A DNA stretch of 57,845 nucleotides from an uncultured Mycoplasmatota bacterium (GCA_947426265.1 CANEDJ010000003.1:1-57845); one strand, 5' to 3'; counted from the first letter of the stretch, positions 2,610 through 39,433 are shown. Translations and numbers: made by a program. Notes: a model not told the origin generated them from the letters alone.

Positions 2610-2977
2610 AAAAAAATGGATTTACATTAGCTGAACTTTTAGGAGTAGTTGTTATTTTAGGGCTTTTGCTTCTTCTCGTATTCCCATCAGTTGTAAAAGA
2701 ACTAAAAGAAGGAGAAGCGAACATTGATAGCGCAGTAGAACAGATTATTAAAAATGGGGCTTCAAATTATGTTGAAAATAACAAAAATACTTATCCATCT
2801 ACCAAGAATGCAACTTATTGTATTACTTTAAGTACTTTAGTAAATGCAGGAGAAATTTCTAAAAGCTTGCTTATTGATAAAAAAGGCAATGAATTGGATT
2901 TAGGAAAAAAAGTAGAAGTTCAGATTCAAAGTGGTCAAAAAACTTATCAAATGAATGATCAATGTCAAAATAGTTAG
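2606..2977 (+). CDS. type IV pilin / ComGC-like pseudopilin (prepilin N-terminal cleavage-methylation signal)
   Basis: MKKNG|FTLAELLGVVVILGLLLLLVFP signal, 2 Cys in the C-terminal half; ATGA overlap with the ftsW stop; AGGAGG SD lies inside the ftsW 3' end. Confidence 0.85.
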   Translation: MKKNGFTLAELLGVVVILGLLLLLVFPSVVKELKEGEANIDSAVEQIIKNGASNYVENNKNTYPSTKNATYCITLSTLVNAGEISKSLLIDKKGNELDLGKKVEVQIQSGQKTYQMNDQCQNS

Positions 2978-3020
2978 GATTTTTTATCTATGAGCAAATA
3001 TCATTTTATGAGGTGATAAA

Positions 3021-3677
3021 ATGATACAAAAAATATTTGAGAAAAAAAGAATGTTACTAATTTTAAGTATCACTCTTTTTTTATTACTTTCTTGTTTTTT
3101 ATTTCCAAAAGAGGAAGAAATTATATTAGAGGAATCATTGAAAGAAGAAACTGGAAAAGTTGTTCAAGAAGACGTTATTCAAGTAGATATCAAGGGAGCT
3201 GTTAAAACTCCAGGAGTCTATCAAATGAATAACAATTCTAGGGTTCAGGATGCTATAGAAAAAAGTGGAGGACTTTTAGAAAATGCTTATTTAAATACAA
3301 TCAATTTAAGTAAAAGATTACATGATGAAATGGTAATTATCATTTATACAAAAGAAGAAATAGATCAATTTCTAAAAGAAGAAACACGAACATTAAAACA
3401 AGAGAACACTTGTATTTGTCCTAAAATAACAAATGATGTTTGTATAGAAAAATCAATTACAAATAAAGAAGAAATCAATCATACATTGAAAATATCCTTA
3501 AACCATGGAAAGAAAGAAGACTTTGAAACATTAACAGGAATAGGCCCATCAAAAGCAGAAGCAATTATAAAATATCGAAATGAGCATGGAAAATTTGAAA
3601 CCATTGAAGAAATTAAAAATGTAAATGGAATAGGAGAAGCAACTTTTGAAAAGATTAAAGATCATCTTACACTCTAA
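3021..3677 (+). CDS. comEA: DNA receptor ComEA (TM anchor, SLBB-like domain, C-terminal helix-hairpin-helix)
   Basis: VDIKGAVKTPGVYQM...RVQDAIEKSGG, and C-terminal LTGIGPSKAEAIIKYRNEHGKFETIEEIKNVNGIGEATFEKIK. Confidence 0.9.
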   Translation: MIQKIFEKKRMLLILSITLFLLLSCFLFPKEEEIILEESLKEETGKVVQEDVIQVDIKGAVKTPGVYQMNNNSRVQDAIEKSGGLLENAYLNTINLSKRLHDEMVIIIYTKEEIDQFLKEETRTLKQENTCICPKITNDVCIEKSITNKEEINHTLKISLNHGKKEDFETLTGIGPSKAEAIIKYRNEHGKFETIEEIKNVNGIGEATFEKIKDHLTL

Positions 3678-5691
3678 TTACTTTTTGCTAATTTGTTTTT
3701 TACTTTTATTATTTTATCTTTTTTATTCTTTTACATTTGTAAAATCTAAATACCAAAAAAATGATATTTCCTTTGAGGGAACTATTTTATCTAAAAAAAT
3801 ATACGAAAGTTATGCTATCTTAGAAATAAAGGGAAAAGAAAAATTGCTTGTCCAATATACTTTTTCTTCTATAAAATTGATACAAAACTTAAAAATAGGG
3901 GATGTTATTTCTTTTAAAGGTACTTTAGAATTGCCTAGTTCAAATAGGAACTTTTACCTATTTAATTATCAAAAGTATTTAAAAGGAAAACAAATTTTTT
4001 GGATTGCGAAAACGGATAGCATTATATTAAAGAAACCTTCTAGTGGATTTTATTTATGGAAAGATAAACTGATTCGAAAAATGGAAAAGAAAAAACAAGC
4101 CTCTTATTATTTTTCCTTTTTATTAGGGGATAGTTCTAGTTTAAAGAAAAAAAATTTATATCAAGAATTAGGAATTAGCCACTTATTTGCTGTTTCAGGA
4201 ATGCATATCCTCTTTATTGCAGGTTTCCTATCAAAATTGTTTCAAAAACTATGTTCTAAAACACTAATTTCCTTTTTTCTTGTTACAGTTGTATTAACTT
4301 TCTATATTTGGTTATTATCAGATAGCGCTTCTGCTAATAGAGCTTATCTACTATATCTTTTCTCTTTCTTAAATAAATATTACAAATTACAACTTTCTTC
4401 TTTAAAATTATTGCTTTTTGTTCTTATGATTTCTATTTTTAAAAATCCATTTTGTCTCTTTCAAATAGGATTTCAATTTAGTTTTTTAATTTGCTTTTTT
4501 TTGATGCTTAAAAAAAGAGATTCCAAAGGATATATAAAAGACTTATGGATCACATCTAGTCTTGCCTTTCTTGTGAGCCTACCACTTTCTTTATACCATT
4601 TTCATCAAATTCATTTAGGAAGTATTTGCTTTAATATGATTGCGGTTCCTTTTGTAACAATCATTTTATTTCCATTATCCTTCTTGTCCTTTTTCTTTCC
4701 AATATTTGAAAATCTTTTTTGTTTATGTATTGGAATTTTTGAATTTACAATAGATAGCTTCAAAATATTTGATTTTTTAAAATTGATATTTCCAGCTTAT
4801 CCAGTTTTTTCTCTTTTCTTCTATTATTTTATATTAATCTTTGGTTTTATTAAAACTAAAAAAATATTGGTTTTCTTTTTCTTACTTTTATTTTTGCACT
4901 TTCTAACTCCTTATATCAATAACTCTTATTGGGTTGATATGATTGACATAAAAGAAGGAGACGCTATTTTAATACGTTATCCTCATTTAGAAAAGACCAT
5001 TTTAATTGATTGTGGAGGTAGGCTACCTTTTCAAAAAAATAGTATATCTCAAGTAGATAACATATTCATTCCTTATATGAAAGCATTAGGAGTGAAAAAA
5101 ATAGACATTTTAATACTCTCCCATGGAGATTACGATCATATGGGAAATGCAATAGAATTAGTAGAAAAATTTAAAGTAGAAAAAGTAATTTTTAATTGTG
5201 GGGAATGGAATGAATTAGAACAAAATTTAATTAAAGTTTTAGAAAAAAAGAAATTAAAATACTATTCTTGCATAAAAGAACTCAAAACTGCTTCTAATAA
5301 ATTGTATTTTCTAAATACAAGAGAATACGAGAATGAAAATGATAATTCAAGTGTTATTTATACAGAACTGAGTCATTACAAATTTCTATTTATGGGTGAT
5401 GCAGGAGAAAAGAAAGAAAAGGAAATATTAAATAAATATAAATTGCAAGATATAGATGTACTAAAAGTAGGGCATCATGGAAGTAAAACAAGCTCTAGTG
5501 AAGAATTTATTGATAGAATAAATCCTAAATATTCTATTATTTCAGTTGGCAAAAATAACAGGTATGGGCATCCAAATCAAGAAGTATTGAAAAACTTAGC
5601 AAATTCAAAAATATATAGAACAGACAAAAATGGAGGAATCCAAATAAAACTAAGCAAGAATGGGTATCAGATGAAAACTTGTCATCCATAA
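3646..5691 (+). CDS. comEC: DNA internalisation channel ComEC/Rec2 with C-terminal metallo-beta-lactamase domain
   Basis: Polytopic competence domain (GISHLFAVSGMHI) plus LSHGDYDHMGN and VGHHGS MBL motifs; TTG start with AGGAGA SD, overlapping the comEA end. Confidence 0.9.
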   Translation: MKRLKIILHSNYFLLICFLLLLFYLFYSFTFVKSKYQKNDISFEGTILSKKIYESYAILEIKGKEKLLVQYTFSSIKLIQNLKIGDVISFKGTLELPSSNRNFYLFNYQKYLKGKQIFWIAKTDSIILKKPSSGFYLWKDKLIRKMEKKKQASYYFSFLLGDSSSLKKKNLYQELGISHLFAVSGMHILFIAGFLSKLFQKLCSKTLISFFLVTVVLTFYIWLLSDSASANRAYLLYLFSFLNKYYKLQLSSLKLLLFVLMISIFKNPFCLFQIGFQFSFLICFFLMLKKRDSKGYIKDLWITSSLAFLVSLPLSLYHFHQIHLGSICFNMIAVPFVTIILFPLSFLSFFFPIFENLFCLCIGIFEFTIDSFKIFDFLKLIFPAYPVFSLFFYYFILIFGFIKTKKILVFFFLLLFLHFLTPYINNSYWVDMIDIKEGDAILIRYPHLEKTILIDCGGRLPFQKNSISQVDNIFIPYMKALGVKKIDILILSHGDYDHMGNAIELVEKFKVEKVIFNCGEWNELEQNLIKVLEKKKLKYYSCIKELKTASNKLYFLNTREYENENDNSSVIYTELSHYKFLFMGDAGEKKEKEILNKYKLQDIDVLKVGHHGSKTSSSEEFIDRINPKYSIISVGKNNRYGHPNQEVLKNLANSKIYRTDKNGGIQIKLSKNGYQMKTCHP

Positions 5692-6050
5692 GAAGACTTA
5701 AGATGTGAATTAGATAGATGAAAATGTAAAAAAGAATCAAAGTGAAACTATTGGAATTGTCATTTGTAAATAAGATAATAAAATATTGTTTCAATGAAAG
5801 AATATCAATTAATTGAATATTAAAAGATGAGTAAAAGAAGCAATCATTTTTTTGACACATATTGACTACATAAAAATATACTATTTATGAAAGAGGTAAG
5901 AAAATGAAGCAAACAGGAATATTATTTATCAAAACTGGATACGCTATAAGTAGGACATTATGATTTAAAAAATGGAGAAGAAAAAATTGAATTCTAAATC
6001 TTGTCTTCCCTGAGACACGTTACCCATATGGTGGCGTTTTATATAGATTT

Positions 6051-32363: not shown

Positions 32364-33473
32364 ATGAAGAAAGTAGTCATTGGAATGAGTGGTGGAGTAG
32401 ATAGTAGTGTAGCCGCAATTTTATTAAAGCAACAAGGTTATGAAGTGATTGGTTTATTTATGAGAAATTGGGATGCGGCTTTAAATAATGATATTTTAGG
32501 GAACCCAACATTAGAAGAAAATATTTGCCCTCAGGAACAAGACTATAATGATGCATTAAAAGTGTGTGAGCAAATTGGAATTCCATTACACCGCATTGAT
32601 TTTGTAAAAGAATATTGGGAATATGTATTTACTTATTTTTTGGAAGAATTAAAACAAGGGAGAACGCCAAATCCAGACATTATGTGTAATAAATATATTA
32701 AGTTTGATATGTTTGTGCAAGAAGCTGAAAAATTGGGTGCTGATTATATTGCGACTGGTCATTATGCTAGAATTTTAGATGGGAAACTAATGAAAGCAGT
32801 TGACCATAATAAAGACCAGACATACTTTTTGTCTCAACTATCTAAAAAGCAGCTTTCAAATGTTTTGTTTCCAATCGGAGAATTGGAAAAAAGAGAGGTT
32901 CGCAAGATTGCTGATGAATTTGGATTAATAACTGCTGCCAAAAAGGATTCTACAGGAATATGTTTCATTGGTGAACGTAATTTTACTAAGTTCCTAGAAA
33001 ATTATTTACCAAATATTCCAGGAGATATTATAGATATTGAAACAAATACAGTAATAGGAAAACATATCGGATTAATGTATTATACAATTGGACAGCGGAA
33101 AGGGCTTAATTTAGGTGGAAATCATGATAGAGTGTTTGTAGTTGGAAAAGATTTATCAAAAAAGGTTTTGTATGTGGCACATGGAGATGATAATTCATAT
33201 CTTTTTAGTGATAGCGCTATTATAGATACTATTAATTGGATTAGTGATGAAAAACCAAAGAATTGTTTGGCAAAATTTCGATATCGGCAAAATGATAATC
33301 CTGTAGAAATGGAATACCTTGATGATAATCATATTTTAGTTAAATATCCACAAGGAGTAAAAGCAGTAACTCCAGGGCAAGCGTGTGTCTTTTATGCCGA
33401 AAATGGAGAATGCCTTGGTGGTGGATTAATTAAGGAAATAAGAAAAGAAGGGGAGAAACTTTGGTATTTATAA
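32364..33473 (+). CDS. mnmA: tRNA 2-thiouridine(34) synthase
   Basis: PP-loop [33 protein letters not shown], catalytic Cys [11 protein letters not shown]. Confidence 0.95.
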
Positions 33474-33504
33474 AGTAGGGGAGGAGATTGTCACTTTCTC
33501 TACT
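33474..33504. repeat. inverted pair of the 13-nt motif AGTAGRGRARGTG; doubles as the mnmA terminator hairpin
   Basis: AGTAGGGGAGGAG (33474-33486, +) and CACTTTCTCTACT (33492-33504, i.e. minus-strand copy), followed by T7. Confidence 0.6.
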
Positions 33505-33534
33505 CTTTTTTTGTTCTATACTTTTTGTTTACAC

Positions 33535-33562
33535 TTGACATTTGACATAAAAGTGATAGAAT
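33535..33562 (+). promoter_or_regulatory. sigma-A type promoter of the XRE regulator gene
   Basis: TTGACA-16 nt-TAGAAT with extended TG (TGATAGAAT). Confidence 0.5.
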
Positions 33563-33580
33563 GATAATAGGAGGGTTGAT

Positions 33581-34366
33581 ATGATGAACAGATTAAACGA
33601 AATCTTGCATGAATTAGGAATATCAAAAGTAAAATTAGCTAAATTCTTAGGAGTTTCCAGACAAATGATTTATAATTACTTGGAACTAGATGATATCAAT
33701 AAATGGCCAAAAGATAAAAAAGTACTATTATTGAATTTGCTTGGAATTAAGTCTCCAGAAGAATTAGAGAATATAAAAGTAGACACAGACTATATTATGG
33801 ATGTAGAAGCTAGAATCAACAACTTATTTGAAAGCACTCAAAAAAATATTGCAAATGAAACAAATTCTATTTATAATGGATTAAATAAAAGACAAAAAGA
33901 AGTTATGGTAAATATTGTCGATTTGATGAAAGAACGTTTGGAAGATGATAAAGATGATGAGGCATATTATACTTTTAAATATTTGTATCATTTTTTACAG
34001 TCTTTGGATACTTCAAAAGAATTAAAGTATGTTTTAGCATATGTTGCAAAGGCAACTGGATTTGTAAAACCTCTGGAGTTTGTATTTGAAGAAAACGAAC
34101 AATTTATTTTTGAAAGTATTTTGTTTTCTGCTTTTACATTGTATAATGGGGGAGGTGCTTCCAAAACTAAAATAGCAGAGACTCATAGACGTTTTGTAGC
34201 TCAAATTGAACACAAAAATGAAGAAAGGATGAGCCGCACTTTAGAATTGAATACAATTAAAGTTCAGGCTTTAAAAGAACTTGGATATACTGAGATTAAC
34301 GAAAGAAATGCAGCAGAAATATTTGAAAAAATTGCTGAAATTCAATCAAGAAAAGTTGGACAATAA
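33581..34366 (+). CDS. XRE-family HTH protein with a ~195-aa uncharacterised helical C-terminal domain
   Basis: LNEILHELGISKVKLAKFLGVSRQMIYNYLE HTH; GGAGGG SD. Confidence 0.7.
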   Translation: MMNRLNEILHELGISKVKLAKFLGVSRQMIYNYLELDDINKWPKDKKVLLLNLLGIKSPEELENIKVDTDYIMDVEARINNLFESTQKNIANETNSIYNGLNKRQKEVMVNIVDLMKERLEDDKDDEAYYTFKYLYHFLQSLDTSKELKYVLAYVAKATGFVKPLEFVFEENEQFIFESILFSAFTLYNGGGASKTKIAETHRRFVAQIEHKNEERMSRTLELNTIKVQALKELGYTEINERNAAEIFEKIAEIQSRKVGQ

Positions 34367-34394
34367 ACACTACATTTTGTAGTTTTTTTTATGT

Positions 34395-34438
34395 CACTTC
34401 CCCTACTTTATTTTTTGAATTTTAATAGTAGAGTAGTG
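34395..34438. repeat. second inverted pair of the 13-nt motif
   Basis: CACTTCCCCTACT (34395-34407) and AGTAGAGTAGTG (34427-34438). 34392-34417 is a near-copy (21 of 25 identical, one indel) of 33489-33513. Confidence 0.55.
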
Positions 34439-34724
34439 TTATTTTTAACGCAAAAAACTATTAGTAGATGATGGATTATAAAGATAAAGTACTTAAAATG
34501 AAGTTATATAGAATAATAATTTCAGTATAATTATAGATATTTCTTTTCAATATAATAATGTATTAAAGCAAATGAAAAGAATTTATCTTTTGAAGGATAA
34601 TTATATTATTGATTTTTTAATGTTATAATATACAAAGCTAATTATGGTTATTATTTGTGCTATTTTTAATCCACTAACAACTTTCTATAATGTATATTAT
34701 GTTAACTTCTTTTGATAAAGAAAA

Positions 34725-35423
34725 TTATTTCTTTTGAAGCTTATTTATAATCATTGCTATAATATTACTCCAACTATCTTCATATTTATTTTTTTTAATG
34801 TTATATAAATGATTTTTAGCAATAATAGCTAGTTTATATTCTTCTTTTTTTGCACGTTTCTTTTTAGATAAAATATCATATAAAAAATCAATTATGTATT
34901 TACACGCTAAAAAAGTGATTAAAATTATGACAATACTAAAATATAAAGCGCTTTCATCTATATTATTAGCATTATTTTCGGACATGGATGGAATAGCAAA
35001 TAAATAAGAACAAATTAAGGGAAAAATTATTGAAGAAAAAAAGCTATTTTCTCCAGTTTTATTGTTTATACAAATTAGCTCTAAAAATTCCTCTATGTCA
35101 TGGTTATAGCTTTTTTTATATTTTTTTAAACAGTGAAAAAAGATTTGCTCGTCTGCTTTAAACTTATTCTTTTGGTTTTTATTTATATAGTAATACCAAA
35201 TGGATTCCCCTGCTTTTAACCATATCGCTACCCCAATAAATAGAGACATTATTTTAGCATAAACATCACCTATATTGAATTTGTTCCAATCTAAAATAAT
35301 ATGTATTGTCATTCCTAGAATCATTATGATGATTGAAATGATAACAATATTGATTGGATTATCATATTTATCCATTATAACTGTTTTCTTTTTATATTCT
35401 TCCCACCAATCTTCATGTATCAT
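34725..35423 (-). CDS. hypothetical 4-TM membrane protein (232 aa), distal gene of a 2-gene operon
   Basis: AGGTGA SD 5 nt before ATG 35423, overlapping the upstream gene's stop; extremely AT-rich, Lys/Ile/Asn-rich. Confidence 0.6.
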   Translation of the reverse strand: MIHEDWWEEYKKKTVIMDKYDNPINIVIISIIIMILGMTIHIILDWNKFNIGDVYAKIMSLFIGVAIWLKAGESIWYYYINKNQKNKFKADEQIFFHCLKKYKKSYNHDIEEFLELICINNKTGENSFFSSIIFPLICSYLFAIPSMSENNANNIDESALYFSIVIILITFLACKYIIDFLYDILSKKKRAKKEEYKLAIIAKNHLYNIKKNKYEDSWSNIIAMIINKLQKK

Positions 35424-35428
35424 TTTTA

Positions 35429-35935
35429 TCACCTACTCTCTTTTATTTGAATTTTGTCAATTTTATTATGTATAATAATGTTTATAAAAATTGAAAATGC
35501 AACAATTATAAGTGGCGTTAGCCATTGAAGCATAGATTTATCGAGAATGCCAAAAAGAATTGCTAGCACACTTGTGAAAAATGTAAGCACATTGATTGGG
35601 GTAATAAGATAAATGTTTTTATAGTTGTCAATTAGCCTAGATAAAAATTCTACAGTTTCATAATTTATAGTAATTGTTTCCCTTTCTAATTTAGCTAAAT
35701 TTTTACTTTTTAGAAATTCTTTGATTTCAATTAAGACTTTATCATCAATATTACAGTCTTTTATGATTTCAGAATCACTAAATTCTTTTTTTAAATTTTT
35801 ATAATATTCATTTACAAAATAGTTAAAAGTCTTATAAAAGCTTATTTTGTTTTTATTTATAGTCTTATTTATCTTTTTACTTTTTTTCTTATCTTTCAAA
35901 TATGATTTTAAATGTTTCTTTTCTAGTTCAAGCAT
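35429..35935 (-). CDS. hypothetical protein (168 aa): Lys-rich helical N-terminal domain plus 2 C-terminal TM helices
   Basis: AGAGGTGA SD 5 nt before ATG 35935 (the track's GTG 35944 lies inside the SD). Confidence 0.6.
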   Translation of the reverse strand: MLELEKKHLKSYLKDKKKSKKINKTINKNKISFYKTFNYFVNEYYKNLKKEFSDSEIIKDCNIDDKVLIEIKEFLKSKNLAKLERETITINYETVEFLSRLIDNYKNIYLITPINVLTFFTSVLAILFGILDKSMLQWLTPLIIVAFSIFINIIIHNKIDKIQIKESR

Positions 35936-35957
35936 AAAACTCACCTCTTAATTTTTT

Positions 35958-35966
35958 ATTATAGCA
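35958..35966 (-). promoter_or_regulatory. extended -10 element (TGCTATAAT) for the 2-gene membrane operon
   Basis: TGnTATAAT ~22 nt upstream of ATG 35935; no good -35. Confidence 0.4.
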
Positions 35967-35998
35967 CAAATATAACAAAAACGAACATAATTTCATCA

Positions 35999-36033
35999 TA
36001 AAAAAAATCAGAAACTTATTGAAAGCTTCTGAT
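35999..36033 (-). terminator. intrinsic terminator of the 20-codon mini-gene
   Basis: 11-bp stem (one mismatch) ATCAGAAGCTT-TCAAT-AAGTTTCTGAT followed by T8 on the minus strand; the mini-gene's stop codon sits in the loop. Confidence 0.7.
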
Positions 36034-36078
36034 ATTATTCCTCATATAATGAATGAGTAATATTAATAATAAAATCAT
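36016..36078 (-). CDS. unlisted 20-codon hydrophobic ORF MILLLILLIHYMRNNIRSFQ
   Basis: Own promoter, AAAGGGGA SD 4-5 nt before ATG, own terminator; too short to be listed in the ORF track. Confidence 0.45.
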   Translation of the reverse strand: MILLLILLIHYMRNNIRSFQ

Positions 36079-36106
36079 AAAATCCCCTTTTTTCTTTCGA
36101 GAGGAT

Positions 36107-36134
36107 ATTATAACAGAAATTTAAAAAAATGCAA
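36107..36134 (-). promoter_or_regulatory. sigma-A type promoter of the mini-gene
   Basis: TTGCAT-16 nt-TATAAT with extended TG (TGTTATAAT) on the minus strand. Confidence 0.55.
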
Positions 36135-36161
36135 ATTGATTAAAATCGTTCCAAATTCTAC

Positions 36162-36173
36162 CACTTCCCTACT
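36162..36173 (-). repeat. fifth copy of the 13-nt motif
   Basis: CACTTCCCTACT (plus strand) = AGTAGGGAAGTG on the minus strand; lies between two divergent promoters. Confidence 0.5.
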
Positions 36174-36177
36174 CTTT

Positions 36178-36207
36178 GCATAATTCACTCATAAGCAATC
36201 CATAATA
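36178..36207 (+). promoter_or_regulatory. forespore sigma-G-like promoter
   Basis: GCATA-18 nt-CATAATA matches GnATR-17/18-CATnnTA. Caveat: this leaves only a ~10-nt leader before ATG 36225. Confidence 0.35.
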
Positions 36208-36224
36208 CTAATGGGTGATGAAAT

Positions 36225-36434
36225 ATGGCAAAGAAAAATATGAAACAGTCTAATAAAGCATCTGTAAAGAACTGTAAGAATAATAATGTTAGTAATGCTA
36301 ACAATAATGCAGTAACTGATGCTAATAGTAATAAAGTTTCAAACAAAGCCAATAATGAAATTGGTTTTGATGACGCTGAAGACCATTCGTTTGAACTAGA
36401 TGAAGATAATGGCGATTCTTTTAGACTAATATAG
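36225..36434 (+). CDS. small Asn/Lys/Asp-rich protein (69 aa); possible minor spore protein
   Basis: GGGTGA SD 6 nt before ATG, strong terminator directly downstream; basic N-terminal half, acidic C-terminus. Confidence 0.55.
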   Translation: MAKKNMKQSNKASVKNCKNNNVSNANNNAVTDANSNKVSNKANNEIGFDDAEDHSFELDEDNGDSFRLI

Positions 36435-36446
36435 GTAGTCATACCT

Positions 36447-36474
36447 AAGAAAGAGTTTTCTCTTTCTTTTTTTT
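36447..36474 (+). terminator. intrinsic terminator
   Basis: 9-bp stem AAGAAAGAG-TTTT-CTCTTTCTT followed by T8. Confidence 0.8.
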
Positions 36475-37219
36475 AAAAACAATAATGATTCATTAACATA
36501 ACTCCAACACCTAATCCAAAATAAAGCAAAGATTTTTTTTCAAAATGATAATTCAATGAAGTTGGCAATAATTCATTTAATGAAATATGTATCATAATGC
36601 CAGCAATCGTAATATATATCATTCCCATAATAGATTCTGTAATTATGCTTCCTAACAAGAAAAATGCTAATAAAGCACCAAATAGTTCAGACATTCCAGA
36701 GATAAAAGTATAAAATATGGCTTTTTTATGGCTTTTAGATGCATAAAAAATAGGAATTGAAATACTGATACCTTCTGGGATATTGTGTAGCGCTATAGCA
36801 ATAGAAAGAGAAATTCCGAGGGACAAGTTGTGAGAACTGGTAATGAATGTTGCGATACCTTCAGGAATATTATGAATGATAATGGCGAGCATGGAAATAA
36901 TTCCTACTCGATATAACTTTGAATTGTTTTTAGAAGATTCTGGCAAATAATGATTGATAGAAATTGAAATTAAAATGCCAATGAGTAAAAATAAAAATGT
37001 AATAAAAATAACAGTCCATGAGTTAACATGTGCTTTTAATAAACTTTGACCTTCAGGAATTAAATCAGTTAGAGAAACTGTAATCATAACTCCAGCAGCA
37101 AAAGCAAGCGCTTTCATTACTAATGTGTCCTTTTTTTTGAAAAATATAAAAAGTGTTCCTATCATAGTAGAAAATCCTGCTAATGTTGTTAAAATAAATG
37201 CTTGTACAGTATTTGTCAT
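36473..37219 (-). CDS. zupT: ZIP-family zinc transporter
   Basis: 8 TM segments; HNIPEGIA and HNIPEGIS metal-binding motifs. Confidence 0.9.
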   Translation of the reverse strand: MTNTVQAFILTTLAGFSTMIGTLFIFFKKKDTLVMKALAFAAGVMITVSLTDLIPEGQSLLKAHVNSWTVIFITFLFLLIGILISISINHYLPESSKNNSKLYRVGIISMLAIIIHNIPEGIATFITSSHNLSLGISLSIAIALHNIPEGISISIPIFYASKSHKKAIFYTFISGMSELFGALLAFFLLGSIITESIMGMIYITIAGIMIHISLNELLPTSLNYHFEKKSLLYFGLGVGVMLMNHYCF

Positions 37220-37306
37220 AATCTCACCTACTTTAATATATTCAAAAAGAAAAAGATTATTGTTTAAAATATCTTTTTCATGTACACAATAAAAATGGTG
37301 AAGACT

Positions 37307-37840
37307 ATGTATTATTTAAATTGTTTCTTTTTATATTCTATTGTTGGATTTTTATTTGAGCATCTTGTCTACTTTTTTATGAATCGTCATGGAGATAGTG
37401 GGATTTTATATGGACCTTGGACACCTGTTTATGGAATTGGAATTATCATTATCATATTAACTTCTAATTTTATCTTTAAAAATTTACACACTTCTAAACT
37501 GTTTCAAACCTTTATTATTTTTGTAGCAGTTATTGTCCTTTTAACGACCATAGAATTAATTGGCGGTGTGTTAATTGAAAAAATATTTAAAATCACATTT
37601 TGGGATTACAGCAATTTAAAATTTCATATTGGAAAGTATATCTCATTAGAAATTTCTTTGGCATGGGGATTTTTAAGCATATTTGTAATTTATGTAATAA
37701 AGCCTTTATTTGATAAAATGATTGCGAAAATACCTTCTTGGTTAACATTTCTTTTGCTCACTCTTTTCTTAATTGATATTGCAGCTACTCTATTTTTGAA
37801 AACAAAATTAAAAGATTACTTTATCAAAGTTTTTAAGTAA
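37307..37840 (+). CDS. membrane protein of the putative ABC-transporter type IV / CmpB-like (DUF1113) family
   Basis: FFLYSIVGFLFEHLVY...GILYGPWTPVYGIG pattern; start uncertain (37280, 37295 or 37307). Confidence 0.65.
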   Translation: MYYLNCFFLYSIVGFLFEHLVYFFMNRHGDSGILYGPWTPVYGIGIIIIILTSNFIFKNLHTSKLFQTFIIFVAVIVLLTTIELIGGVLIEKIFKITFWDYSNLKFHIGKYISLEISLAWGFLSIFVIYVIKPLFDKMIAKIPSWLTFLLLTLFLIDIAATLFLKTKLKDYFIKVFK

Positions 37841-38529
37841 TCTTTTTCATTTTTAGAAACTCTATAAGAATCTCTAATCTTGGAGATGCTTTTATTTTGA
37901 ATCCATTTTGAAAGTTTCTTTTCTTTTAGTATTTTTATTGTCTTATCTGGATATTTTATATAACAAAAGGATAAGAGCCAAGCAATGGCCATATTGACAT
38001 AATAATGGTCTATGTAGTGCTTGCAACATAATGTTAGGATAATTTCAATATATTGGTCATTGATATAATGATCTAAAAGCAAAATTAATCCAAAGCGAAT
38101 GTCCCACGGATTTTTACTTTTTAATTTTTCTAAAATCCAATGAAAACCTTCTTCTTGATGTTTCTTAAATTGTTTTAAGCTGGCACATACTGTATCATTG
38201 ATTGCCCAATTGGTGTTGTATGGAAGAAAAGCATCTAGTTCTTTTTGTAACTCTTGAAAGTCAATTTTTGAATACCCTAGAGTAAGTCCATGTAGTAGAA
38301 CTTCTTCATAATAATAGTGAGTATTGTACTTTAAAAAGGTCTGATAGTTCCCTTTACTAATTTTTTTGGCTAAATCGTGTAAAATAGGAAAACGAATTCC
38401 AATCATATTGACTTTTTCTAATATCAATTTTGATTGAAATTTTTGATATTTTAAATCTTGCAAAGATAATAAATATTGAATGAATTTTTGATAATTTTCA
38501 AAATTCCAAGTAACTGTTTCTAAATTCAT
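37816..38529 (-). CDS. DNA alkylation repair protein (AlkD-like HEAT-repeat family)
   Basis: YQKFQSKL..., WAINDTVCASL, NPWDIRFGLILLLDHY; TAGGAG SD before ATG 38529. Confidence 0.8.
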   Translation of the reverse strand: MNLETVTWNFENYQKFIQYLLSLQDLKYQKFQSKLILEKVNMIGIRFPILHDLAKKISKGNYQTFLKYNTHYYYEEVLLHGLTLGYSKIDFQELQKELDAFLPYNTNWAINDTVCASLKQFKKHQEEGFHWILEKLKSKNPWDIRFGLILLLDHYINDQYIEIILTLCCKHYIDHYYVNMAIAWLLSFCYIKYPDKTIKILKEKKLSKWIQNKSISKIRDSYRVSKNEKDYLKTLIK

Positions 38530-38539
38530 AATATAACTC

Positions 38540-39433
38540 CTATCCATGGGGATGAAAATTTTTATAATCTGCTTCTAATTTTTCATTGGAAACATGTGTA
38601 TAAATTTGAGTCGTTGATAGAGAACTATGTCCAAGCATTTCCTGGATATCTCTTAAATTTGCACCATTTTGCAATAAGTGAGTAGCAAAGGAATGTCTTA
38701 GTGTATGAGGAGAAAAAGGAGTTTCAATTCCCTTTTGTTTGGCAAGTGCTTGTATCATTTTAAAAATTGCTTGCCTAGTTAAACTGGTTCCATGATTATT
38801 GATAAATAAATAATCATTCCAGCCTTTGATTAAAAGTTCACTACGATAATGATATAGGTAGTTATGGAGTGCATTTGCTGCATAATCGCCAATTGGAACA
38901 ATCCTTTCTTTATTTCCCTTTCCCATTGTTCTAACAATAGACATTTCTAAGTCAATATCCCCTACTTTTAAATTGATAAGCTCAGTCACTCTTAAACCGC
39001 TTGCATACATAAGCTCTAAAATTGCTTTGTTTCTAGCACTAAAAGCATCTTTCACAGAAATGTCGAGCAATTGGTCTATTTCTTCGATACTAAGCACTTT
39101 AGGCAGCTTTTTTGGCTGTTTCGGGATTGGAACTTCTTCTAATGGATTTTCTTTGATATAGTGATTTATCATCAAAAACTTATAAAAAGAACGCAAACAA
39201 GAAATATTATGAGAAATACTTCTCGCACTTTCATTTTGTAAAGTATGAATATATGTTTCAACATGCTTGCTGTTAAGATTTAAATTTAACTGTTTTTCTT
39301 TTAAAAATATAGCAAATTTTTCTAGCTCAAATTGATATGATATGCGTGTGTTTTCACTATAACCTCTGTCAATATACAAATATTCAATAAATTCGTTTCC
39401 ATAAGGTGGTAATATATTTTTTCTATTTGCCAT
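38540..39433 (-). CDS. xerD: tyrosine site-specific recombinase, XerD/XerC-like
   Basis: SAM-like N-terminal domain (YIDRGYSENTRISYQFELEKF), catalytic GLRVTEL...HTLRHSFATHLL...LGHSSLSTTQIYTHV. Confidence 0.85.
   Translation of the reverse strand: MANRKNILPPYGNEFIEYLYIDRGYSENTRISYQFELEKFAIFLKEKQLNLNLNSKHVETYIHTLQNESARSISHNISCLRSFYKFLMINHYIKENPLEEVPIPKQPKKLPKVLSIEEIDQLLDISVKDAFSARNKAILELMYASGLRVTELINLKVGDIDLEMSIVRTMGKGNKERIVPIGDYAANALHNYLYHYRSELLIKGWNDYLFINNHGTSLTRQAIFKMIQALAKQKGIETPFSPHTLRHSFATHLLQNGANLRDIQEMLGHSSLSTTQIYTHVSNEKLEADYKNFHPHG

Follow-up and report, generated by a model that had tools for sequence, protein, structure and literature searches.

A 57,845-nt stretch of DNA from an uncultured Mycoplasmatota bacterium (GCA_947426265.1, CANEDJ010000003.1:1-57845, one strand; hereafter the window) carries, at positions 34394-36173, a patch with two minus-strand genes, ORF1 and ORF2, that adjoins a match to the chromosomal dimer-resolution site dif. 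In the first-pass annotation this patch had been described as an unusually AT-rich accessory module of two coupled orphan membrane proteins. The composition and gene content were indeed as described: the G+C content was 22.4% compared to 28.6% overall in the window (0.2nd percentile among all 1.78-kb windows, with the minimum located here, so that this is the most AT-rich 1.8 kb of the window), and the two minus-strand genes were the only long open reading frames (ORFs). What had been missed is the organizing feature of the locus, its place beside dif at the replication terminus.

The alleles found in the window are referred to as W. ORF1-W (35429-35935, minus strand) encodes 168 amino acids (aa) from an ATG or 171 aa from a GTG, and hydropathy and charge gave the expected architecture, i.e., a basic, Lys-rich, helical cytoplasmic N-domain (residues 1-112) followed by a C-terminal transmembrane (TM) hairpin (approximately 113-134 and 138-159). 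ORF2-W (34725-35423, minus strand; 232 aa from ATG, 235 aa from GTG) has the four TM segments ascribed to it (26-44, 51-69, 127-145, and 160-178), with K/R-rich inside loops and an N-in/C-in topology, and its stop is separated from the XerD arm of dif by 17 nt. The minus-strand junction between the two genes reads AGT AGG TGA TAAAA ATG, with the ORF2 ATG at 35423, and the ORF1 stop (TGA, 35429-35431) therefore lies within the Shine-Dalgarno (SD) sequence of ORF2 (AGGTGA), 5 nt ahead of its ATG, as had been read before. ORF1 and ORF2 would be translationally coupled in this arrangement.

Neither gene resembled a known family. The ORFs were searched against Pfam, NCBIfam, PADLOC-DB v2, PHROGs, and PDB, none of which gave a match, and no toxin-antitoxin or abortive infection family was matched by the pair in Pfam, NCBIfam, or PADLOC. 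A housekeeping membrane family was not found either, the best Pfam and NCBIfam matches being far under the cutoff (DUF2583, 18 vs 27 bits; YchH, 20 vs 108 bits). The suggested link to defense systems gained nothing from defense models, since PADLOC-DB v2 returned 0 families, even at E ≤ 1, for ORF1, ORF2, and the proteins of the two flanking genes, a helix-turn-helix (HTH) protein and the small protein p69. Among 5.8 billion proteins, ORF1 had two relatives besides its own cluster and ORF2 a single one (P0002, 67% identity); a profile search of 1.84 billion cluster representatives gave an ORF1 family of 12 representatives. The profile of these 12 members had no match at E ≤ 10 among PDB sequences, and Pfam scans of each member produced only sub-threshold noise. 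AlphaFold2 models from shallow alignments reached a pLDDT (predicted local distance difference test) score of 47.7 for ORF1 and 38.6 for ORF2. An Rfam scan of 33000-37500 gave no match at E ≤ 1.

The putative dif occupies 34680-34707 (plus strand, 28 bp) and reads ACTTTCTATAA-TGTATA-TTATGTTAACT (XerC arm, center, and XerD arm). It was identical at 24 of 28 positions to Bacillus subtilis dif, for which the sequence as printed by Kono et al. 2011 (PMC3025954) served as the reference, and it was single in the 57.8-kb window, where the next best site had 9 mismatches; none of 200 window shuffles came within 4 mismatches of B. subtilis dif. The cumulative GC skew climbed to approximately 34.5 kb, formed a plateau, and dropped after approximately 40 kb, and gene orientation flips there. 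A xerD tyrosine recombinase gene (38540-39433, minus strand; TIGR02225 XerD equivalog, 342 bits vs a cutoff of 329.6) lies 3.8 kb from the site. Read from its sequence and setting, 34680-34707 is identified as the chromosomal dimer-resolution site at the terminus.

Haplotypes of the locus and gene content beside dif

The patch was compared with contigs of the same species, gathered by exact-protein look-up, and with 80 related species represented by metagenome-assembled genomes of uncultured gut Bacilli (L022-L101). The identical dif 28-mer was present in every same-species contig that reached the position. Between this site and the far flank, at least three haplotypes were found in one species on 97-100% identical flanks: ORF1-W with ORF2-W, ORF1-B with ORF2B, and ORF1-D alone. 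A protein-pattern scan of JGI metagenome contigs, and a search of them with an exact 30-mer from the conserved flank, gave no further alleles.

In haplotype W, the window's own, the flanking proteins were identical throughout. Haplotype B was represented by 17 contigs, partly from the SRR29686xxx sequencing series that also contains W. Its zupT, p69, and intergenic DNA were 95-100% identical to the window down to approximately 36037 and 55-78% identical thereafter; ORF1-B was 50% identical to ORF1-W in protein, with a TM region and an ORF2 position that could not be aligned, and ORF2 was replaced by a 259-aa membrane protein, ORF2B, which follows ORF1-B after a gap of 38 nt. Beyond the ORF2 stop, the first stretch was 77% identical and the spacer between dif and the HTH gene 97-98% identical in most blocks (91% overall). 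The idea that ORF2 and ORF2B are very diverged homologs was ruled out by profile-profile comparison (hhalign probability 0.2%). In haplotype D (L117), the left flank was 99.2% identical over 2.7 kb, ending at window position 34711, 4 nt past dif, while the right flank was approximately 100% identical down to approximately 35947, just ahead of the ORF1 start. ORF1-D (166 aa) was 49% identical to W and 39% to B, and it is followed by no ORF2 but by dif, 31 nt past its stop.

The variable segment is thus bounded on the left by dif plus 4 nt and on the right by either the ORF1 start (about 35947) or a mini-ORF upstream of it (about 36037). The differing upstream breakpoints of W/B (approximately 36037) and W/D (approximately 35947) are as expected for independent recombination events, and the haplotypes would be maintained or swapped by recombination anchored in the invariant dif/HTH flank on one side and the conserved promoter/mini-ORF/p69 flank on the other. 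ORF1 is not a gene that varies by presence or absence within the species; its position is conserved and its alleles are hyper-divergent. ORF2, by comparison, is the exchangeable downstream partner. The earlier view of an accessory island module stood in that the patch is non-core and strain-variable and that its slot holds NERD nucleases in sister species, but ORF1 varies by allele and only ORF2 comes and goes. Likewise, the two genes co-occur in W, but ORF1-D has no partner and ORF2 is swapped for an unrelated gene in B. The tight coupling holds for the window haplotype but not as a general rule, because the genes are separated by 38 nt in haplotype B and by 56 nt in a B-type pair of the sister lineage L113, in which the two proteins were 67% and 67% identical.

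Among ORF1 alleles W, B, and D, the N-domain was 48-58% identical and the TM hairpin only 13-25%, and the divergence of ORF1 therefore grows toward dif. The synonymous divergence (dS) between W and B was 1.3, as large as the zupT dS between this species and L113. The ratio of nonsynonymous to synonymous divergence (dN/dS) was 0.27 for ORF1, 0.20 for ORF2 against P0002, and 0.20-0.45 across the comparisons of ORF1, ORF2, and ORF2B, which are therefore real translated genes whose constraint is relaxed or diversified; p69 and zupT gave 0.03 and 0.06, indicating strong purifying selection on p69. The allele classes are old, and were either long kept or imported from related species.

Decayed copies of ORF1 and ORF2B, frameshifted or truncated, were seen in a sister-lineage contig (L114, 2975-4266), and a fourth ORF1 allele, P0005 (L102, 67-488), was truncated to 99 aa in a contig of approximately 1x coverage, where a sequencing error is possible. 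These copies show that the genes are dispensable. In a further comparison, between W and allele C (L011), DNA identity was approximately 70-80% over both genes and 97% at the ORF1-stop/ORF2-start junction (35378-35437), and the first 27 ORF2 codons were identical at the protein level. This jump in identity could reflect a recombination mosaic or a conserved coupling or regulatory element.

One way to read the haplotypes is as variants of a polymorphic toxin-immunity or addiction-like pair, in which ORF1 would join its N-domain to a membrane-active, holin- or pore-like hairpin and ORF2 would be the cognate immunity protein. The conserved N-domain with its hypervariable C-terminal module, the co-varying, non-homologous downstream membrane protein, and the tight translational coupling in W all fit such a pair, as does a weak holin-like PHROGs match (phrog_4237, E = 0.23), which was not significant. 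We consider this reading very unlikely, given that ORF1 lacks a secretion signal or known delivery domain, occurs without any partner in haplotype D, L110, L112, and L029, and gave no significant match to a toxin or immunity family, and that the gaps of 38 and 56 nt speak against coupling as a general property.

Comparison of the interval between mnmA and zupT, whose assignment as the flanking genes was confirmed (tRNA_Me_trans, E = 7e-80; ZIP transporter, E = 2e-28), showed that its part from dif to p69/zupT is variable among the 80 species, being empty or holding other cargo. The spoIIM-mnmA-HTH block was conserved across related species, and in 46 of the 63 relatives that have the HTH gene, a dif copy with ≤6 mismatches lay just downstream of it. 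From dif to p69/zupT, the gap in relatives ranged from approximately 350 nt, apparently empty, to 3 kb. Eight relatives (L024, L039, L055, L057, L062, L066, L069, and L088) had no convincing gene in a slot of about 350-660 nt. A NERD nuclease gene, alone or followed by an orphan multi-TM protein, occupied the slot in L028 (9412-10737), L033 (8381-8917), L034 (9558-11047), L060 (9349-10092), and L064 (9369-10010). Other cargo included an orphan 5-TM protein (L037), a C11 peptidase with a zinc-ribbon protein (L045 and L051), a TSCPD protein (L031 and L058), and further orphans. The whole dif region was low in GC in the relatives, whatever the cargo. We conclude that a hypervariable cargo slot runs from the XerD arm of dif to p69-zupT at the replication terminus, and that the patch is this slot in its occupied state.

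Two of the NERD-bearing slots, those of L028 and L034, have an orphan 230-270-aa multi-TM protein after the NERD gene that ends right at dif, the same two-gene arrangement as ORF1-ORF2 made from unrelated genes. In L025, the stretch of approximately 3.3 kb from the HTH gene to zupT (2935-6046) encodes a protein of 625 aa that has sigma-70 regions 2-4 and one of 160 aa that is AbrB/MraZ-like, with two inverted dif-like sites (3581-3608 and 3916-3943) between their genes.

In every lineage with a long enough contig, the 3' end of the ORF1-family gene, or that of its downstream partner, faced the XerD arm of dif at a distance of 17-210 nt. These lineages were W, B, C (L011), D (L117), L029, L104, L108, L110/L111, L112, and L113, and the fragment in L059 was also adjacent to dif. 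When the ORF1 profile was run on the 80 related species, members were found only in L029 and, as the fragment, in L059, both adjoining dif; ORF2 was found in none of the 80. The link persisted in a species in which zupT was only 64% identical, and in L110, which shows this zupT identity, dif was nonetheless identical at 28 of 28 positions. ORF1 thus represents a tiny family that evolves quickly, keeps a locked position beside dif, and always has its 3' end toward the XerD arm.

The genes might also be lineage-specific membrane proteins, e.g., of the envelope or of sporulation, that evolve under weak constraint, with mosaic alleles produced by recombination and turnover near the terminus. This neutral account is doubtful in our view, since drift alone hardly explains three allele classes of 39-50% identity on 97-100% identical flanks with D/W breakpoints that match the ORF1 coding sequence. 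It also has to contend with the NERD nucleases in the same slot of sister species and with the strict link to dif across species whose zupT is only 64% identical. In its favor are the purifying but relaxed dN/dS (0.2-0.45), the pseudogenized copies in L114 and L102, the absence of defense domains, a surrounding genome rich in sporulation genes (spoIIM and an S55/SpoIVB-like peptidase), and the low GC that the dif region shows in relatives regardless of cargo.

The fixed position of ORF1 would be explained if it were a factor dedicated to dif, membrane-anchored and possibly binding DNA through a winged helix, that tethers the terminus or dif or modulates Xer or IMEX recombination (IMEX, integrative mobile elements that exploit Xer). 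The gene was always adjacent to dif and oriented toward the XerD arm in at least 9 lineages, and a recombinase gene linked to its own site has a precedent in xerS-difSL (PMC5357621). The ORF1 model places a helix (65-77) and two strands (81-84/87-90; pLDDT about 50), i.e., a low-confidence helix plus beta-hairpin at 65-90, between basic helices, and 3 of the 12 family members had sub-threshold winged-helix matches (RuvB_C, E = 0.033, in two members; MCM_WH, E = 0.029, in one). All of these winged-helix hints were non-significant, however, the gene is absent from most related species, which retain dif, it is pseudogenized in L114, and its allelic divergence is extreme for a binder of an invariant site; such a role is therefore quite improbable.

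Inovirus-like prophages and hybrid Xer sites

Integration of filamentous phages at dif, and accessory or defense loci carried on such prophages, have been described (PMC5357621 and PMC11630473). At the dif of these Gram-positive gut Bacilli, we found inovirus-like prophages in L110 (8600-16500), L111 (4830-12740), and L115 (1-2700), which carry a Zot-like ATPase, a rolling-circle Rep, many small ORFs, and an XRE-type repressor. In L110/L111, the prophage (rolling-circle Rep and Zot) starts 12 nt beyond the XerC arm. L115, which belongs to the window's species, has the D allele of ORF1 and, beyond a hybrid site, a prophage with a Zot-like ATPase and an XRE-type repressor. The hybrid junction there reads AAGTTTCTGTGGCTACAA-TTATGTTAACT, in which the host XerD arm is kept and the center and XerC arm are foreign. 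In L104/L105, L108/L109, and L113/L114, a hybrid site with a perfect center and XerD arm and a degenerate XerC arm follows the cargo, and these sites are, as judged from their sequence, integration junctions. The hybrid junctions therefore indicate that Xer-exploiting elements insert between the dif arms, and that the ORF1 side is the unaltered host flank.

Given these elements, the patch itself could be the stabilized remnant of an IMEX, with ORF2, or ORF1 together with ORF2, having come on a circle with a full dif-like attP that was integrated by XerCD, the distal hybrid site having decayed and the youngest cargo being stacked nearest to dif. The cargo abuts dif within 17-31 nt in all haplotypes, divergence begins 4 nt past the XerD arm, and the order is as stacking predicts, with the variable ORF2 next to dif and the more widely shared ORF1 further out. 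IMEX activity at this dif is documented by the hybrid junctions of L104, L108, L113, and L115, in which the XerD arm is perfect and the XerC arm degenerate. In L033, a second site whose XerD arm is perfect lies in direct orientation 74 nt past dif, and IMEX with one degenerate arm are known (PMC5357621). We nevertheless hold this origin to be unlikely. The patch has a single dif, and no second dif-like site with ≤4/17 mismatches to either half-site was found on the p69 side in 33000-38000; near the far boundary there is a single XerC-arm-like 11-mer, which is inverted, and matches of this kind turn up at chance frequency. The inovirus integrations are located across the XerD arm and leave ORF1 in the host flank, and the same ORF1-D allele occurs with a prophage (L115) and without one (L117). 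ORF2 is present, replaced, or absent among haplotypes, yet ORF1, ORF2, and ORF2B were never found off this locus or in viral collections: neither tblastn against 50,697 phage genomes nor IMG/VR pattern scans gave a match that would indicate a phage origin, and the exact dif 28-mer was not in IMG/VR. No recombinase gene lies in 34708-36224, and the reliance on host XerCD that follows trivially from this does not discriminate between the readings. Because the second site of an IMEX is lacking and the cargo lies on the host-flank side, we do not file the patch as an IMEX.

One viral contig of 24.6% GC with a dif-like site beside its own integrase, L125 (IMG/VR UViG_3300028591_003100), was considered and proved unrelated. 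Its site, AACTTATTAAAATATATATTATGTTAACT (5605-5651), lies approximately 450 nt from its own tyrosine integrase gene.

Upstream elements and core flanks

Upstream of ORF1, the order on the minus strand is a sigma-A-like promoter, a mini-ORF, a terminator, an extended -10 element, and ORF1; the promoter calls are consensus readings from sequence. The sigma-A-like promoter (36107-36135, minus strand; TTTGCA-17-TATAAT with TG) was conserved in a cross-species alignment and would drive the mini-ORF in the window and ORF1 directly in relatives without the mini-ORF. The mini-gene and terminator noted earlier just upstream of the pair are both there: a 20-codon ORF (36016-36078, minus strand; MILLLILLIHYMRNNIRSFQ) with a strong SD (AAAGGGGA), and a predicted intrinsic terminator (36007-36033, minus strand; 11-bp stem plus U8) that ends the mini-ORF transcript and has its 5' arm within the mini-ORF. 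Haplotypes W, B, and D, the sister lineage L113/L114, and the more distant L110/L111 all keep the mini-ORF peptide, the changes being synonymous or conservative; L103, L104, and L109 lack it, and in these the same promoter adjoins ORF1. The sequence, MILLLILLI(H/N)YM(R/K)NN..., includes a run of nine Ile/Leu codons, and the mini-ORF stop falls in the terminator's loop-side. The mini-ORF could be a leader-peptide attenuator or a tiny membrane peptide.

The identity break between W and B falls at the upstream edge of the terminator, and haplotype B has a different hairpin there, followed by a T-rich run. The hairpin was also considered as a pseudo-dif (an 11+6+10 palindrome containing the inverted XerC-arm-like 11-mer) and was dismissed as an ordinary terminator, given the other hairpin and T-rich run of haplotype B at this place. 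Downstream of it lies a candidate extended -10 of ORF1's own promoter (TGTGCTATAAT on the minus strand, 35958-35968, inferred from consensus); haplotype B reads TATGTTATAAT at the aligned position. The pair would be transcribed from this sigma-A-type extended -10 promoter, with the terminator insulating it from the mini-ORF.

Two copies of a motif had been taken as the borders of the patch, at 34395 and 36162. Both are where they had been placed, and 0 of 100 shuffles gave two. The motif, CACTTCCC(C)TACT / AGTAGGGGAAGTG, occurs at two fixed places in many relatives, namely after the HTH gene and approximately 50 nt upstream of p69. The first window copy, CACTTCCCCTACT (34395-34407, plus strand), lies just past the HTH gene and forms an inverted pair with AGTAGAGTAGTG at 34427-34438; this position is also filled in L034, L037, L050, L052, L055, L057, and L073. 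The second, CACTTCCCTACTCT (36162-36175, plus strand), lies between the divergent ORF1/mini-ORF and p69 promoters; it was identical in L103-L111, L113, and L114, across species despite the diverged surrounding DNA, and lies upstream of p69 in L031, L037, L055, and L064. A further inverted pair (33474-33486 / 33492-33504) is the mnmA terminator. The role of border, att site, or island repeat was therefore given up: both positions are occupied in empty-slot relatives such as L055, and because of their presence there and in many other relatives the motif copies are conserved host elements. A KOPS- or SRS-like function (FtsK-orienting polar sequence or SpoIIIE recognition sequence), suggested by the GAGTAGGG that the motif contains, was rejected as well, since both copies flanking dif are on the same strand without a polarity switch at dif. 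The motif could be an operator for the core HTH protein.

That protein (261 aa; gene at 33581-34366, plus strand, on the left flank) had been described as an XRE regulator. Only its N-terminal ~35 aa matched HTH models, weakly (HTH_7, 25.7 bits; HTH_3 under the cutoff), and the remainder belongs to no family. Its gene is a core gene that adjoins mnmA in 63 of the 80 relatives at 45-85% identity, whatever the cargo; in 40 of 46 relatives it is no more than 900 nt away from dif, and in some as near as 3-30 nt. Because it is convergent with ORF2, its layout is not that of a regulator of the pair. The HTH protein may be a DNA-binding protein associated with the terminus or dif, or the proximity may be plain synteny.

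On the right flank, p69 (36225-36434, plus strand) encodes a small Asn-rich protein and is always paired with zupT. It was 100% identical in haplotypes W, B, and D, and homologs adjoin zupT in many relatives. The protein is Asn/Lys-rich with a conserved C-terminal motif, IGFDD..(D/E)SF.L, and by our own reading its upstream region, GCATA-18 nt-CATAATA, resembles promoters of the forespore sigma-G/F type; p69 may be a spore-associated small protein. In some strains (L001, L002, and L124), zupT is broken at approximately codon 145 (window position ~36777) by an element with a large serine recombinase (Resolvase + Recombinase + Zn_ribbon_recom) at its end, a sortase, and a TraG/VirD4-type coupling protein, on account of which it looks like an integrative and conjugative element.

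Candidate roles and known systems

Taken as a whole, the locus is probably best explained as a slot adjacent to dif that holds a dif-locked ORF1 and an exchangeable ORF2 in recombining haplotypes. The functional claim, that this is a strain-specific membrane module engaged in genetic conflict and not a housekeeping function, is our leading guess and is put forward tentatively. The guess of a conflict role stems from the allelic pattern, the accessory genes that fill this slot in other species, including NERD nucleases, the dispensability of the genes, and the inovirus traffic. ORF1 would then be a membrane-tethered cytoplasmic adaptor whose variable TM hairpin pairs with a cognate polytopic partner, and the module might act in exclusion of, or in an abortive response to, filamentous phages or other invaders that use the locus or the membrane.

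Several observations weigh against such a role. ORF1 alleles coexist with integrated inoviruses in L110 and L115, so there is no obvious block on inovirus integration. Haplotype D, having no partner gene, weakens the idea of a cognate pair. The pair matched nothing in PADLOC, Pfam, NCBIfam, PHROGs, or PDB, and the AlphaFold models (pLDDT 48 and 39) are unusable. A dN/dS below 1 with saturated dS fits the import of old alleles as well as it fits balancing selection. Furthermore, all comparison DNA consists of metagenome contigs, often of 1-3 kb, in which the same species was inferred from 97-99% flank identity.

A bolder proposal joins conflict and position: the ORF1 family would be a hitherto unrecognized dif-linked, membrane-anchored, nucleic-acid-binding factor, encoded just outside the XerD arm, that polices or exploits Xer/dif transactions, by excluding or controlling phages and IMEX or by tethering the terminus. 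We rate this as improbable; if it were true, the extreme divergence of alleles within the species, with ORF2 partners to match, would be the trace left by an arms race at the dimer-resolution site.

Filamentous phages and other Xer-exploiting elements are known to use dif sites as landing pads, mostly in Proteobacteria. New here is that a whole clade of uncultured gut Bacilli has a slot for cargo beside the XerD arm of dif, with contents that are specific to the species, and that the alleles occupying it within one species are deeply diverged and belong to an orphan membrane-protein family found only beside dif. The locus is precise and testable, with defined haplotypes and breakpoints and an inovirus integrating a few nucleotides away, and it can be used to ask how dif-adjacent genes are exchanged and whether hosts encode dif-proximal functions against Xer-exploiting parasites. 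Should ORF1 and ORF2 prove to be ordinary membrane proteins that evolve fast, the region's annotation would still be corrected, with the terminus and dif located, the HTH gene assigned to the core, and the conserved motifs no longer read as island borders.

We regard the patch as cargo that varies by strain at a Xer/dif hotspot and that centers on a new orphan family; it shares features with several known systems. Like IMEX (PMC5357621), it is variable DNA set against the dif of an organism with XerCD, without an integrase of its own, and inovirus-like elements of this species and its relatives demonstrably use the same dif; unlike IMEX, it lacks a second, degenerate dif-like site, its cargo lies outside the XerD arm on the host-flank side, its genes were never seen elsewhere, and it measures only 1.3 kb and has no replication or morphogenesis genes. 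The pdif modules of Acinetobacter (PMC7399989) are similar in that one or two genes form a small cassette against a Xer site and in that strains differ in the cassette found at the same place, but those modules are plasmid-borne, with two pdif sites and known resistance or toxin-antitoxin genes, whereas the patch has one chromosomal dif and orphan genes.

With genomic islands and defense hotspots, the locus has in common conserved flanks (the HTH gene with dif, and p69-zupT), cargo that varies by species and includes NERD nucleases, and low GC; it differs from them in that the cargo of the window has no recognized defense domain and that ORF1 is conserved in position and varies by allele. The agr specificity groups and comQXP pherotypes are allelic "type" loci with conserved flanks. 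The patch resembles them in its deep allele classes within one species, sharp identity breaks at gene boundaries, and a membrane protein that co-varies with a partner, although it has no recognizable signaling peptide, kinase, or processing enzyme, and the mini-ORF peptide is conserved and not variable. CdiA-CT/CdiI is an example of a polymorphic toxin-immunity cassette. The patch has no delivery machinery or toxin domain, and partner-less alleles exist; like CdiA-CT/CdiI, it combines an N-terminal part that is conserved with a C-terminal module that is hypervariable, and its downstream partner is non-homologous and switches along with that module.

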